Source of the DNA: Archaeoglobus sp. JdFR-37 | GTDB lineage: Archaea; Halobacteriota; Archaeoglobi; Archaeoglobales; Archaeoglobaceae | Assembly (NCBI GenBank): GCA_002010215.1 | Contig: MTMY01000027.1 | Coordinates: 1 to 49,917, forward strand | Length of the DNA stretch: 49,917 nt | Direction: 5' to 3' | Shown here: positions 30,001-36,000 of the stretch, in pieces | How the letters are laid out: each line of letters starts with the position of its first letter | Numbering within the stretch: position 1 is the stretch's first letter | Position numbers: made by a program

Positions 30001-33000
30001 TAGATAACGAAGCGTATCAGAACACCGGAAATCAGCAGAGTGGTTTGACGCCACCAGGAGCCAACACAACCACAACACCGGCAGGAAAGATAATGCCCGG
30101 GAAGCTGGGAAGGAAGAAAGATATGGTGAGCATTGCAGTTGCCCACGGCATCCCCTATGTTGCATCAGCCAGCGTCGCCTTCCCCATGGATATTCGCAGA
30201 AAGGTAAAAAGGGCCGTTGAATTTGAGGGGGCCAAGTACATTCAGATACACTGCCCCTGCGTTACAGGGTGGGGTATTCAGGGCAAAGATGCGGTTCCGC
30301 TGGCAAGGCTTGCAGTTGAGACTGCCTTATATCCTATTGTGGAATTTGAAAACGGCGAATTGGTTAAGGTCAGGAAGATAAAGGACAGAAAACCAGTGGA
30401 GGAGTATCTAAAGCCTCAGAGGCGTTTCAGACATCTCTTCAGACATCCTGAAGGAAAGAAAATATTGGAGATGATCCAGAAGATTGCTGATGAGAATGCT
30501 AAACGCTACAATCTTGACATTTAACTTTTTTATTGATGATTGATGTAGGACGATGAATGAAGGATTATAAAGGACAATGATGAAGCCCGAAGAAGCTCTT
30601 GAAATTTCAAGGCATGTAGCAGAAGAAGTCAGAAGGGCTGTTGAGCCACTAGCTGGCAGAAGAGCTGCAGCAAAAGAGGTAGGTATGGGGAAAGATGGAA
30701 CGCCCACGAAGCTCATAGATAAGGTAGCAGAGGATGCGGCGATAAGGGTTCTGACGGAGTACAATCTGACGGTAGTGAGTGAAGAGGCTGGAGTTACAGG
30801 TAAAGGAGATACAGTGGTTGCTCTAGACCCAATTGATGGTACATTCAATGCAACGAGAGGAGTTCCAATATACTCCGTTGCTCTGTGCTTCTCTTCAAGC
30901 CAAAGACTGGAGGATGTTTTTTTCGGATACGTAACGAATCTTGCAACTGGAGATGAATGGTACGCCGATGAGGTGGCGTATAAGAACGGGGAGCAGATAG
31001 AGGTATCCAAAAGAGAGAGTATAAACTGCAACGCCATTATGTACTACCCCACGAGAGATTATGGCTTCAGAAGAGTGAGAATTTTCGGCAGTGCAGCTCT
31101 AGAAATATGCTTTGTGGCAGACGGCTCTTTTGACTGTTTCATAGACATCAGAAACAATGGTGGGAAAGGATTGCTGAGGGTTTATGACGTTGCAGCCTCA
31201 ATATACATTGCATCAAAGGCAGGGGCAGTTGTTAGCGACCATGAGGGCAGAGAGATCTGGCAGAAAAGAATAAGCATGGATGAGAGATTCAAATTGGTTA
31301 TTGCGAATCAGAAGCTGCATAACAGGCTTCTGGAGATCTTGAAATGAAGGCTGCGGTAGTTTATAAATATGACTCTATTGGAATTGCTGAAGAAGCTAGG
31401 AAATTTATCGAGGAGAGTATCTGCTCAGCTGAAATCTTTCACATTCCTGATAAACGCCTAGAAGGTTACGATTTCATAGTTTCAGTTGGAGGAGATGGTA
31501 CAATTCTCAGAATTCTCCAAGAAGTACTGAAGTGTCCTCCGATATTCGGAATTAACACTGGAAGAATTGGGTTGCTCACCCACGCAAACCCTGAAAATTT
31601 CAGAGACATCCTGCCAGGGATTATAGATAGATGGGAAATCGAAGAATTCATGAGGATTGAGGCTGAAATAAACGGAAAAGTCATGATGAGGGCGTTGAAT
31701 GAAGTAGCATTCCTCAGCAACACTCCCGCCCGTTTGATAGGGTTGAAGGTATCCGTGGATGGTGTTGAGATAGAAGATATGAGGTGCGACGGAATGCTCT
31801 TCGCAACTCCCATCGGCTCTACAGCATATGCCCTATCTTCAGGGGGTCCCATAATCGACCCATATCTGGAATCAATCCTCATCGTTCCTGTTGCACCCTT
31901 TAGGCTGGGTTGGAAGCCGTGGGTAATAAAACATGACAGGAGAATCGAAATTGAGGTTTCCAAAGAGAGAAACGCTCTAGCAATTTCAGATGGACAGAAA
32001 ATTTTGGAAGTTGGGAATGACGACGAAGTGGCTGTTTTCAGGTCCCAGTTTCCTGCTGTCTTTTTCAGAAGTGGATTCAACAGGCTTGAGAGGATAAGAG
32101 GGAAGTTAATGTCTCTTCGATAATCTTGAGGTGATTACATGCTTCTTCTTCTTGGCCTCATAGGGCATCCCGTTGCCCACAGTGTATCTCCAGCAATGCA
32201 TCAGGCAGCAATGAAGGAGCTAGGGATAGAAGGAGCGTATCTGGCTTTCGATGTTCTGCCTGAGAATTTGAGGGATGCAGTATTTGGTGCTAGGGCTCTG
32301 GGATTCAAAGGTTTAAACGTCACAATTCCACACAAGGAAACCGTTGCAAGATATCTTCGTCTGAAGGAAGAGGCTGAGGCGATAAAGGCTGTGAATACCA
32401 TAAAGCTGGACGACATGACTGGCTACAACACCGATGTTTACGGTGCAATGAAAGCACTTGAGGAAGCAGGCTTCAAGGCGAGAGGAAAAAGGTCCCTGAT
32501 TGTGGGAGCAGGAGGAGCGGCTAAGGCTATAGGTTACGGGCTGATAAGAGTGGGAGCAAAGCTTGTTGTTACAAACAGAACACCATCGCGAGGCATAGAA
32601 CTTGCTAATTTCCTCAGGAAATTTGGGCCATGCACTTTTATCCACTTTGACAAGCTTCACGAGTTAAGGGGGCGGATAAACCTGATTATCAACGCCACTC
32701 CGCTGGGGATGGAGGGGTTTGAAGAACGCCTTCCCGTTCCTCCAGCCCTTCTTGAGAGGGTCACGGTTTTTGACACCGTTTACAATCCAATGGAAACTCT
32801 TCTGATAAAAGAAGCCAAGAAGAGGGGTTGCAGGGTGGTTTACGGGATTGAAATGCTCGTCCATCAGGGTGCCAAGAGCTTCGAGATATGGGCTGGCATG
32901 GAGCCCCCAGTTGAAGTTATGAGGGATGCTGCCTTAAGGGCTTTGGGAAGTATGAGGTAACGGGATTCATAACTGGCTCAAACATTCACATATCCGAACT

Positions 33001-36000
33001 TTCTGATTCAATCTTCATTTTGTTTCCTTTGTACAGTATAATCTTTACTTTCTCTTCAGTAACGATTCCTTCGCCAATAATCTCCATCAATCTCGGCTTG
33101 ATCTTGTCTATTCTCTCCTTTTTATCAACAACTTCTATCACGATAGGCAAATCCGTTGAGAGCCGAAGTATGGACGTTGTGTGTATTCTGCTGGTTTTTC
33201 CGTAGCCATAGATACCCCTCAAAACTGTGGCTCCAGCCAGACCTTCCTTTTTAAACATCTCCACAAGATATTTATAAAGGGGTTTACCCTCGTATCTGTC
33301 TGATTCACCGATGAATATTCTCAAGAGGATAGCTTCCTCCTCCTTTTTCTCCATCTCAGTGCCTCCACAATCCAATAGCAACAACTTTACCCAGATACAC
33401 GGCCAGCAGTGAGAGAGTAACGGTTCCCACTAAATTTAAGGCAAATAAAACAATTTCCTTTTGTTCAAGAAATCTGAAAGTTTCGTAGCCAAATGTGGAC
33501 ATTGTGGTGAATGAGCTCACGAATCCTATTGTCAGAAAGGTCCTCATTTCAGTGCTGAAAAACCCTTCATATTCCGAGAGATACATTATCAGACCCAGCA
33601 TGAAGCTGCCGATGACATTTACTGCAAGAGTTCCCAGAGGAAAGTCTAAAACACCATTTTGAATCCATCCGCCAATGAGGTATCTTAGCACTGCCCCCAG
33701 AAAGCCACCGATGCCTATCAGCAGCAAATTACTCATGTTTGCCCCTCGCCTGAGATTTTCACCATCTGCATCTCCTTCAGAATCCTCAAACTTACAATCG
33801 CGTAATAGGTATCTTCCAGAGTTGAGATGCCCCCGTAGATGCTCCTTCTAAAACCACCATTAGCGATCTGGAGAGATGCAATGTATTTCAGAATTTTACG
33901 ACATCTATGGGCGAGATACCTAAATCCAAGAACTTTAAGGCATAAAAGGGAGTAGTAAGTCTCTTCCAGGTATGGCGGGTAACCTCCAGGAGATTTTGTG
34001 AAACTCCCTGTTGGGCATTCGTGCTGCCTGATGAAAGAAATGACATCATTGCCTTCCTCAATTCTGTTGTAGAGGATGTAAAGGCAGTAATACACCTCCT
34101 GAAGGCTTGGAGAACTGACCCCAAATCCTCCCTCTTTCCTGAACTTTTCTACGAAATCTTTCACGTCATCCGGGATGTTTTTGCCGAGCAATCTCAGGGA
34201 GCACGAGATGATGCATATCTCTCTCAGTATGCTGGGCAGGTTGAAGGAGTACGTGGCTGTAGTGCCCCTATAGTAATCTATGATTCGCGAAGGCTGGGTA
34301 AACCTTTCGAGAATTTCCTTAAGTCTTCTAAGTAGGAAGCTACTCAAATCCGATAATTTTTCCTCCAGTAGCTTCAGGCAGTTGAATGTGTAGAATATGG
34401 CGTATGGTTCAATCTTTATACTGCCATTGAGGAGCTTCACAGGCTCTTCTCTGCGGAATATTTCGGCACTGATGGCTTTCAGCACATATACTGCGTAGTA
34501 GGTCTCAGGCAGAGAAGATGGCAATGGTTTGCAGAAGGCAAAGCCCCCGTCTGCAGCTCTTCTGGAAAGCACGAAATTCTTCAGCTTTTTGATGTCTGTA
34601 TCTCTCGCTTCTCCTAATCCTTCAAATAACAATCCAGTAACATGCGGGATCAGCACCCACCTCCAGCGTGCAGAACAGGCGTCATCAGCCTTAACGGCGG
34701 TTAAGGGTGGACGCCATCACCCGCAACGTCTGCTTAATGCAGGAGTTTGTTATATATCCTTTATGCTGGGGTCAGCATCATTAGCCACAGTCGCCATCGT
34801 TTCTCCCCACAAAAATTTTAACCTCATCACAGATGCAACTCCATGGAAATTTACGAAGTTAATAATGGCGTTTACTGCGTTGACACTCTGGTTGGAGGTC
34901 AGAAAGAAGCAATTTCATGCTTCATCTTGGACTTTGAGCGTGCAGCAATTGTTGAGGCTGGCCCAATCTCCACTTATAGAACGCTCTTGGAAGCTCTGGA
35001 TGAGATTGGAGTGAGAAAGGACAGGGTTCGATACATTGCAGTCACCCACATCCATCTTGACCACGGAGGAGCATCCGGGGCTCTGTTAAAAGAATTACCT
35101 GAAGCCAAGGTCATAACTCATCCTCTGGGAGTGAAACATCTCGTAGACCCGTCGAAGTTATGGAAAGTTTCGAGCTCCATCCTCGGCAGCCTCGCCGACA
35201 TTTACGGCCAGCCATTACCCGTTGAGGCAAATCGCATAATAGCTGCTGAAGATGGATTGAAGGTAACTTTGAGCGGAGAGGAGTTGGTAGTTCTCCATTC
35301 TCCTGGCCACGCACCCCATCATGCAGCTTTCTTCCTAGAAAACAGCAGAATACTATTTCCGGGAGATGCGGCAGGTATGTTCATGGACGGTTATCTGATA
35401 CCCACCACTCCCCCGCCTTTTAGGCTCGACCTAGCCGTAAAAAGCCTAGAAAGGTTTGAAGGGTTGAACCCATTGTACATCGGCTTCACCCATTTTGGAA
35501 TGAGCCAGGCCGATGATTATCTGGATAAAGCTATAGAGAAAAAGAAGTTGTGGGTTCAGGTGGCAGAAGAGGTTGTTGAAGCTGGTGGGGGAGTTGAGGA
35601 ACTCCATGCGAAATTGCTGGAGGTGGATGAGGATTACAGAAACTTGTGCAGGTATTATTCCAGCTCAGACATAATTCTGAGAATGTACAAGGTAGGATTG
35701 ATGGGTCTGGTTGAATTCGTCAGGAATGGACGATGATGGAGTGCTGGAGGATTAAAAATTAAAAACTAGAGAAATGGGGGGAAAGGAGGAAGAAAAATGA
35801 AACTGAATTTTATAACATCCAACGAGGGGAAATTCAGAGAAGCGAGAGAAATAGCCTCTTCTTATGGTATAGAGGTGGCATGGCTGAAAATGAAATATGA
35901 CGAATTTCAGGGAGACACACTTGAGGAAATAGCCGTTAAGAGTGCCAAGGCACTGTCGAAAGCAATAGGAGAGCCTTTTTTCATCGAGGACAGCGGACTC

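Follow-up and report, generated by a model that had tools for sequence, protein, structure and literature searches.

At the locus described here, within a window of 49,917 nt from Archaeoglobus sp. JdFR-37 (the whole stretch of DNA that was analysed), a fluoride riboswitch is followed on the minus strand by genes for a toroid protein, a CrcB/FluC fluoride channel and a DUF190 protein. This gene order, proposed in the survey's finding, is borne out by the open reading frames and their family matches (PF00432, PF02537/TIGR00494 and PF02641). The features are as follows:

34750..34762, minus strand: putative archaeal promoter, a purine-rich BRE-like stretch with TATATAA, judged from the sequence
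34669..34730, minus strand: fluoride riboswitch aptamer (Rfam RF01734)
34721-34718 paired with 34709-34706, minus strand: aptamer helix P1
34715-34710 paired with 34683-34678, minus strand: aptamer pseudoknot
34706..34710, minus strand: candidate anti-Shine-Dalgarno stretch CCACC, the 3' strand of P1, complementary to GGUGG of the ribosome-binding site
34698-34696 paired with 34690-34688, minus strand: aptamer helix P3
34657..34664, minus strand: ribosome-binding site GGAGGTGG, containing GGAGGTG at 34664-34658, read from the sequence
33733..34656, minus strand: toroid, 307 aa, COG1689/K09719, TK0513 homologue (PF00432, E 4.6e-15)
33356..33736, minus strand: CrcB/FluC fluoride channel (PF02537, E 1.2e-27; TIGR00494, 93.3 bits against a cut-off of 80.45)
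32986..33354, minus strand: DUF190 protein (PF02641, E 7.8e-39)

The toroid starts at GTG 34656 or at the next codon, 34653, which reads ATG, and its stop overlaps the start of crcB (ATGA). The latter is a Fluc/CrcB gene by its TIGR00494 score and is present as a single copy in the genome. A divergent metallo-beta-lactamase-fold gene beside the switch is not conserved there in other loci.

The riboswitch match (55.1 bits against a cut-off of 34, E 1.2e-12) has P1, the pseudoknot and P3. Rfam has no other match within the window, and RF01734 none elsewhere in the genome, for which 48 candidates were scored. Thus the genome does have a single fluoride riboswitch ending 12 nt ahead of the toroid's GTG start, as had been claimed, but the overlap between aptamer and ribosome-binding site described with it disappears, as the Rfam match stops 4 nt short of GGAGGTG. 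Among 26 Rfam-confirmed copies of the aptamer, 99.7% of the helix cells are paired and 6 of 13 pairs show compensatory changes. The putative promoter lies about 30 nt upstream of the first aptamer helix, and the same ribosome-binding element is found behind the aptamer in other Archaeoglobi. No terminator was detected behind the switch in a sigma-70 scan, a method unsuited to an archaeal host.

Our search of the class Archaeoglobi gave 22 riboswitch matches in 18 of 96 genomes, and at 13 of these 22 loci, from 7 genera, a toroid homologue is the next gene on the same strand. This matches the earlier count of 12 of 21 and supports the view that the switch truly has the toroid as a client, which is the commonest one in Archaeoglobi among the matches found. 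CrcB and DUF190 had been said to follow the toroid at four loci; the strand of the toroid carries them at 3 of these 13 loci, but they are divergent in the fourth (L005). At other riboswitch loci of the class, seven genes that had been described as encoding polytopic membrane proteins form one PF00146 family (HyfC/HycD-like), and the two 'Cys-rich' proteins are DUF6062. A full toroid gene occurs in 31 of the 96 genomes and CrcB in 19, and 17 of the 18 switch-bearing genomes have the full toroid gene, the 18th carrying a piece at a contig end. Seven genomes have the switch and the toroid with no CrcB match; one of these (G001) is closed, and its sole CLC carries GREGP, which we take not to be the signature of a fluoride-type CLC.

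Further afield, we studied motif-picked loci, the best 80 of 132 archaeal and the best 80 of 276 bacterial-type, among which related members are not independent. Rfam placed the switch directly upstream of the toroid in 58 of the best 80 of 132 (named) archaeal loci; 18 of these 80 had no Rfam match, 7 of which still precede crcB. For other Halobacteriota the switch was directly upstream in 16 of 27 loci and inside the operon in 9 more. With a custom model (R1), it was found directly upstream in 54 of the best 80 of 276 bacterial-type loci, and on a set of 20 such loci R1 gave 16 direct matches against 6 by Rfam at its cut-off. CrcB was absent from the best 80 of 276 bacterial-type loci; where it is present in the best 80 of 132 archaeal loci (27 cases), DUF190 comes after it in 26. 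Switch-bearing toroids lie throughout the family tree in many separate supported clades. The link extends over Thermococci, Bathyarchaeia, Brockarchaeota, Micrarchaeota, methanogens and one bacterial clade, and one family member comes from Candidatus Beckwithbacteria. The link is therefore not specific to the archaeal order in which it was noticed. Since switch and toroid persist in genomes and loci without CrcB, their gene context makes it very probable that the toroid serves the fluoride response specifically and acts independently of the channel.

The same order and gene sizes are found in T. kodakarensis TK0513-TK0514(crcB)-TK0515, in which the switch precedes a 288-aa PF00432 toroid (BAD84702.1), crcB and a 126-aa gene. 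TK0513 is 28% identical to the window toroid over 279 aa and falls in a separate tree clade; its single match in the JdFR-37 genome is the window toroid, and a profile built from Archaeoglobi sequences alone matches it in one collinear domain (E 2e-42). The window toroid is likewise a single toroid of the 260-330 aa range with collinear full-length matches to members of the TK0513 family, whose COG1689/K09719 labels were taken from the source name of a Thermococcus member. The T. kodakarensis fluoride switch is, to our knowledge, the only archaeal riboswitch that has been tested in the laboratory, the crcB switch reportedly having been tested later by Speed in 2018 (AEM 84:e02306-17). Its transcription start site at 440500 lies at the beginning of the aptamer. 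Both fluoride binding and raised expression are described for this copy in PMC8241225. Jager 2014 (PMC4247193) places TK0513 directly behind the crcB riboswitch and ahead of crcB and, in the passages that mention it, names the gene without a fold or function. The same passages give T. kodakarensis crcB its own start site, so that co-transcription is not assured there (PMC4247193); 67 nt precede that crcB, whereas the window toroid and crcB overlap. The window locus thus adds another instance of a gene order already described, and the toroid, whose place behind the switch appeared in print in 2014, is not a previously unlisted member of the fluoride regulon. Our literature search found no paper on the fold, range or function of COG1689; Speed 2018, Baker 2012 and Weinberg 2010 per-RNA gene lists lay outside it and may name COG1689 or a TK0513 phenotype. 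COG1689 was absent from the Weinberg 2010 supplements searched, a set that did not cover Additional files 1 and 3.

The predicted toroid model (pLDDT 90.0, pTM 0.89) is closest to GGTase-I beta (Z 23.3, rmsd 2.7, 246 aligned residues), in line with the survey's description of a prenyltransferase-beta-like protein, and the ESM Atlas returned the same Pfam family only. The toroid is also soluble, as none of 113 family sequences has a hydrophobic segment. A 925-codon open frame around the toroid in G175, considered as a fusion, was rejected as an off-frame run in GC-rich DNA. With the beta subunits of protein prenyltransferases (GGTase-I, RabGGTase and FTase; PF00432) the toroid shares six hairpins (Z 21-23, rmsd 2.7-4.4, profile E 4e-17), but identity is 13-16%, the Asp/Cys/His zinc site is missing and no alpha-subunit gene lies near the window toroid or recurs among toroid neighbours. 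The best His column reaches 24%, the Cys columns (58% at 262, 45% at 212) precede GGF hairpins away from the aligned D-x-C site, and the position of that RabGGTase motif, whose residues are presumably zinc ligands, is E231. The beta domain of class II terpene cyclases (SsDMS, MstE, squalene-hopene cyclase) matches the toroid with Z 14-17. Its DxDD repeat aligns with toroid repeat 1 and the last acid is retained as E51, but the general acid is missing (S-L-P-E at the aligned place; DxDD in 0 of 113 sequences), the toroid scores 17 bits against a cut-off of 322.7 for TIGR01787, and it has no gamma domain. Judged by its residues, the toroid belongs with neither the zinc protein prenyltransferases nor the DxDD terpene cyclases.

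Loss of the zinc triad does not imply an empty site, because three carboxylates and one arginine at the barrel mouth show strong conservation; of the claim that the protein is non-catalytic and lacks a metal triad, only the second half is supported. Across 170 sequences below 70% identity, conservation is 97% for D/E51, 99% for E/D231, 98% for R271, 85% for E281 (Gln in TK0513) and 90% for Y/F229, and the helix positions of the predicted model and the alignments put these residues at the starts of inner helices. E51, E231 and R271 correspond to D44, E224 and R262 of TK0513. The supposedly invariant GGFRR..S patch varies over the same set (R271 98%, R270 50%, S272 69%).

Fluoride together with Mg2+ locks the aptamer, and the leader sequence suggests that the riboswitch probably frees the ribosome-binding site on fluoride binding. 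Without fluoride the CCACC strand would pair with GGUGG, and with fluoride CCACC would be kept in P1 and the toroid translated, a step we consider likely; CrcB translation is probably coupled to that of the toroid through the ATGA overlap. The computed CCACC pairing probability is 0.15 at 37 °C and 0.32-0.60 at 65-80 °C, and the mostly open ribosome-binding site in the 37 °C fold counts against this step. The P1 and RBS bases covary at the level of lineages (T-T 17, C-C 19, C-T 5, T-C 1), two or three in number only, and C is the rarest base in the background at that position (9 of 116). A shuffled-leader test of duplex energy could not tell the pairing apart from chance at most of the Thermococci loci.

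When fluoride inhibits phosphoryl enzymes that depend on Mg, a phosphate- or diphosphate-bearing metabolite would build up. The soluble single-domain toroid may then bind, and possibly hydrolyse or isomerise, such a metabolite at the polar site of E51, E231, E281, R271 and Y229, a step that residue conservation and gene neighbours make possible rather than probable. In a beta-only cyclase, arginines and one tyrosine at the barrel mouth are described as binding phosphate, in the part of PMC12232559 that treats the site. Toroid co-clients include enolase, the histidine-phosphatase/phosphoglycerate-mutase and PEP synthase families, NUDIX, USP and Na/H antiporters, enzyme types that appear as fluoride-sensitive clients in the lists in PMC5533749 and PMC11139923. 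The Enterobacter cloacae FRM operon, given as ppaC-uspA-eno-gpmA-crcB-orf5249 in the account of its genes in PMC5533749, is likewise led by a switch and joins the channel to non-export genes; neighbours of the eno, gpmA-family and usp kinds are found beside the toroid as well. The clients of the Enterobacter switch duplicate enzymes that fluoride inhibits, whereas the toroid resembles none of the known targets of fluoride. Among the best 80 of 276 bacterial-type loci, only a minority have glycolytic neighbours (enolase 3, mutase family 5, against MFS 31 and dynamin-like 23), which counts against the metabolite reading.

A non-catalytic toroid, as proposed in the survey's finding, might instead bind or shield another protein, as prenyltransferase beta does with alpha, its partner being either an enzyme sensitive to fluoride or a protein of the HEAT, DUF6062 or DUF190 kind. 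The absence of the zinc triad and DxDD would fit, as would the small genes close downstream in the best 80 of 132 archaeal loci (DUF6062 20, zinc-ribbon-HEAT 7, two unnamed families 10 and 11), but we find this unlikely: no neighbour is universal, DUF6062, the HEAT protein and the unnamed families are all missing from the JdFR-37 genome, crcB comes directly after TK0513, and the conserved residues form a small charged cluster rather than a broad surface. The complex prediction for the toroid and its zinc-ribbon-HEAT neighbour at L104, from single sequences, gave no answer either way (score 0.02). Slightly less probable again is a role at the membrane, with the toroid binding prenyl diphosphates or modifying lipid like a stripped class II cyclase and so reducing HF entry. 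The nearest folds (GGTase/FTase beta, Z 21-23; squalene cyclases, Z 16-17), the best match of the first repeat to the catalytic repeat of drimenyl diphosphate synthase and the 23 dynamin-like neighbours among the best 80 of 276 bacterial-type loci speak for it. Against it, there is no DxDD in 113 sequences and no membrane segment, isoprenoid genes do not recur among the neighbours, and a member occurs in Candidatus Beckwithbacteria, a group making little or no lipid. The general-acid position, D303 of SsDMS in the part of PMC12232559 on that enzyme, is Pro50 here and variable across the family.

Three conserved carboxylates, one Arg and several Ser/Thr at helix starts, in a protein that occurs where no exporter was found, could also make a fluoride sink or sensor holding Mg2+ or Ca2+ and capturing fluoride or a metal-fluoride-phosphate complex. 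This is improbable, as one site per 35 kDa would be a poor sink for millimolar fluoride, and the Ser/Thr positions, which every prenyltransferase repeat shares, may have a structural role. It is very improbable indeed that the gene is a mere passenger, placed between switch and crcB but irrelevant to fluoride stress: Rfam gives no match at 18 of the best 80 of 132 archaeal loci, and the full gene is missing from 65 of 96 Archaeoglobi genomes, but several phyla have the switch ahead of the gene, also where crcB is missing, and in Archaeoglobi nearly all switch-bearing genomes keep it whole.

We therefore prefer, tentatively, a fluoride-ON operon of switch, COG1689 toroid, CrcB and DUF190, in the order of TK0513-TK0515, in which the toroid would act on a phosphorylated metabolite. 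More doubtful is the wider picture in which COG1689 would provide fluoride resistance without export across domains, as an enzyme or a binder of some ligand with the prenyltransferase-beta barrel rebuilt around a Glu/Glu/Arg site, protecting phosphoryl metabolism and serving as the main switch client in some archaea and small-genome bacteria without Fluc or a fluoride-type CLC. The laboratory-tested archaeal riboswitch controls first a gene that nobody has explained. Conserved behind this switch in lineages from Archaeoglobi to bacteria of candidate phyla, and often with no channel present, the family is a strong candidate for a new defence against fluoride that does not rely on export; its named residues offer mutation targets in a genetically tractable host, with relevance to fluoride tolerance generally and to the engineering of defluorinating microbes.

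The locus is real, and its gene order, headed by an unexplained first gene, is already published:

34669-34730, minus strand, fluoride riboswitch RF01734 (Rfam, 55.1 bits)
33733-34656, minus strand, toroid ORF, 307 aa (PF00432), starting 12 bases past the switch match
33356-33736, minus strand, CrcB, overlapping the toroid stop by ATGA
32986-33354, minus strand, DUF190, third gene, after CrcB
34843-35736, plus strand, metallo-beta-lactamase-fold gene, divergent, with an intergenic region common to it and the switch operon

RF01734 is the sole Rfam match within the window, and contigs of sequencing runs X1 and X2, possibly its source, cover the stretch with zero differences, while run X4 covers it piecewise. 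The survey's finding had the switch match overlapping the ribosome-binding site; in fact it stops 4 nt short of GGAGGTG. The true toroid start may be 34653, because the CTG second codon there is ATG in a near-identical strain (run X5) and homologues have a TTG start at the matching position. Conservation of the metallo-beta-lactamase-fold gene beside the switch was not found elsewhere. A second, distant toroid without a switch lies at G000:C4:101639-102226 (24% identity to a family member).

Aptamer pairs are kept with compensatory changes, in an alignment whose rows were preselected as Rfam matches. A scan of the window leader found no terminator. CCACC, the 3' strand of P1, is complementary to the GGUGG in the ribosome-binding site. 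Thermococci have CCGCC as the P1 strand and GGAGGCGG as the ribosome-binding site, even though C is otherwise the least used base at this position. At 37 C the computed anti-SD pairing was 0.15; at 65-80 C it was 0.32-0.60. Taken together, these sequence features make translational ON control by the switch likely, in agreement with the reading of the T. kodakarensis switch quoted in PMC8241225; that paper, citing Speed 2018, calls the T. kodakarensis switch the sole natural archaeal riboswitch tested.

The toroid had been presented as an unlisted fluoride-stress protein. However, Jager 2014 (PMC4247193) places the crcB RNA 5' of TK0513, not TK0514 (crcB), so the gene's position behind the switch is already in print; TK0513 spans 867 nt, or 288 codons. 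A profile search retrieved a 288-aa Thermococcus celer homologue and, via it, BAD84702.1 of T. kodakarensis KOD1, also 288 aa. We infer that BAD84702 is TK0513, because two accession-locus pairs in PMC8061334 (BAD85129 = TK0940; BAD84359 = TK0170) have one offset, with the equal length in support. BAD84702.1 is 28% identical to the window toroid over 279 aa and matches nothing else in the window's genome. Against a profile built from 58 close homologues it aligns as a single collinear domain (E 2e-42); longer toroids match that profile only piecewise. The labels COG1689 and K09719 come from the source name of another Thermococcus member. We take NC_000917 to be Archaeoglobus fulgidus. The 2010 crcB alignment has rows for this accession and NC_006624 (PMC2864571). 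A literature search, with Speed 2018 and Baker 2012 outside its reach, did not find the toroid's fold, range or function in print.

A GTDB motif scan confirmed 132 archaeal loci, and Rfam was run on all of the best 80. Among these best 80 of 132, the switch lies directly upstream of the toroid in 58: 26 of 27 Thermococci loci and 32 of 53 others (Bathyarchaeia, Brockarchaeota, Micrarchaeota, Methanocellales, Desulfurococcales, Archaeoglobi). A Na/H antiporter intervenes in 2 Methanobacteriaceae loci, 2 loci end before upstream DNA, and 18 gave no Rfam match; of these 18, 7 have crcB and DUF190 downstream of the toroid and 2 carry weaker switch copies by R1, our custom model. Five switch-less toroid-crcB-DUF190 operons (L058, L061, L066, L068, L077) open with an Amphi-Trp gene adjoining a divergent ArsR-like gene, and a transcription factor may stand in place of the switch there. 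Family members (E 1e-30 or better) occur in 59/401 genomes of the window's phylum; at 27 of its non-Archaeoglobi loci, R1 placed the switch directly upstream in 16, one or two genes off in 9 and nowhere in 2. The clade including a Candidatus Beckwithbacteria protein yielded 276 metagenome loci, of which the best 80 (64 distinct proteins at 90%) were kept: 54 had a same-strand R1 match no more than 200 nt away, a further 12 had one within 2.6 kb and 14 had none; at the first 20, Rfam with a stricter cut-off confirmed 6 versus 16 by R1. These locus sets are selected and related, and the counts therefore measure breadth, not frequency.

Within Archaeoglobi, scoring only 48 candidates per genome, we found 22 switch matches in 18 of 96 genomes, followed by the toroid in 13, a PF00146 membrane subunit in 7 and DUF6062 genes in 2. 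CrcB had been reported behind four toroid loci; it is on the same strand in three, and the fourth did not hold. At L005/L104 the switch leads the toroid and a zinc-ribbon-HEAT gene, with crcB-DUF190 divergent. The switch-led PF00146 genes (L009, L010, L011, L014, L015, L019, L020) are HyfC/HycD-like; formate hydrogenlyase is among the switch clients listed in the literature. DUF6062, another unexplained client, lies behind a separate switch in certain genomes (L083:836-918; L021) and comes after the toroid in 20 of the best 80 of 132 archaeal loci; a genome search found neither it nor the HEAT protein in the window's genome.

Across the 96 Archaeoglobi genomes, a full toroid occurs in 31 and CrcB in 19, the toroid being present in 15/19 CrcB-bearing versus 16/77 other genomes. 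Seven, including the closed genome G001, have switch and toroid without a CrcB match. In five of these seven, six CLC loci all read GREGP, two further full-length matches being left out; the six are without the fluoride-type signature. No CrcB was found at the best 80 of 276 bacterial-type loci, where MFS genes are neighbours in 31, dynamin-like GTPase genes in 23, members of the histidine-phosphatase family in 5 and enolase in 3; 21 of the 80 have a 70-aa membrane protein without a Pfam match in CrcB-less switch operons (examples of the MFS, dynamin-like and 70-aa partners are at L148:1757-3535, L140:1279-2472 and L133:4568-4780, in no set order). The MFS transporter could be a further fluoride exporter. 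In methanogens the switch is often followed by a NUDIX or dynamin-like gene, then by the toroid and enolase; switch-toroid operons that include the dynamin-like GTPase occur in methanogens, with enolase behind, and in one Micrarchaeote (L238-L240, L248, L075), and a PEP synthase family gene separates switch and toroid at L197:671-2932. No universal toroid neighbour emerged among the loci examined. The toroid is very likely a member of the fluoride response, and that it is a mere passenger gene seems highly improbable.

The toroid model is confident (pLDDT 90.0); it resembles prenyltransferase beta subunits most (Z 21-23), with terpene cyclases next (Z 14-17). Unlike the former, it has no zinc triad (170-sequence comparison); the S-D-V-D-D-T site of drimenyl diphosphate synthase, with D303 as general acid (PMC12232559), is S-S-L-P-E-T in the window toroid, and DxDD occurs in 0/113 toroid sequences. 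The toroid retains neither chemistry, and it lacks membrane segments. An isoprenoid or membrane role is doubtful; a protein scaffold is slightly less so, and metal-fluoride binding is less probable than either. The protein had also been called non-catalytic. Among 170 sequences below 70% identity, D/E51 (97%), E/D231 (99%), R271 (98%), E281 (85%) and Y/F229 (90%) are conserved, lying at inner-helix starts or the preceding loop in the model. That face bears the active site in toroid relatives. These residues resemble a reworked site for binding or catalysis, so the toroid could still be catalytic. Our best full reading, a fluoride-response operon whose toroid has a putative phosphorylated-metabolite site, is tentative. 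The breadth of the switch link and its independence from CrcB are what make this toroid family of interest.
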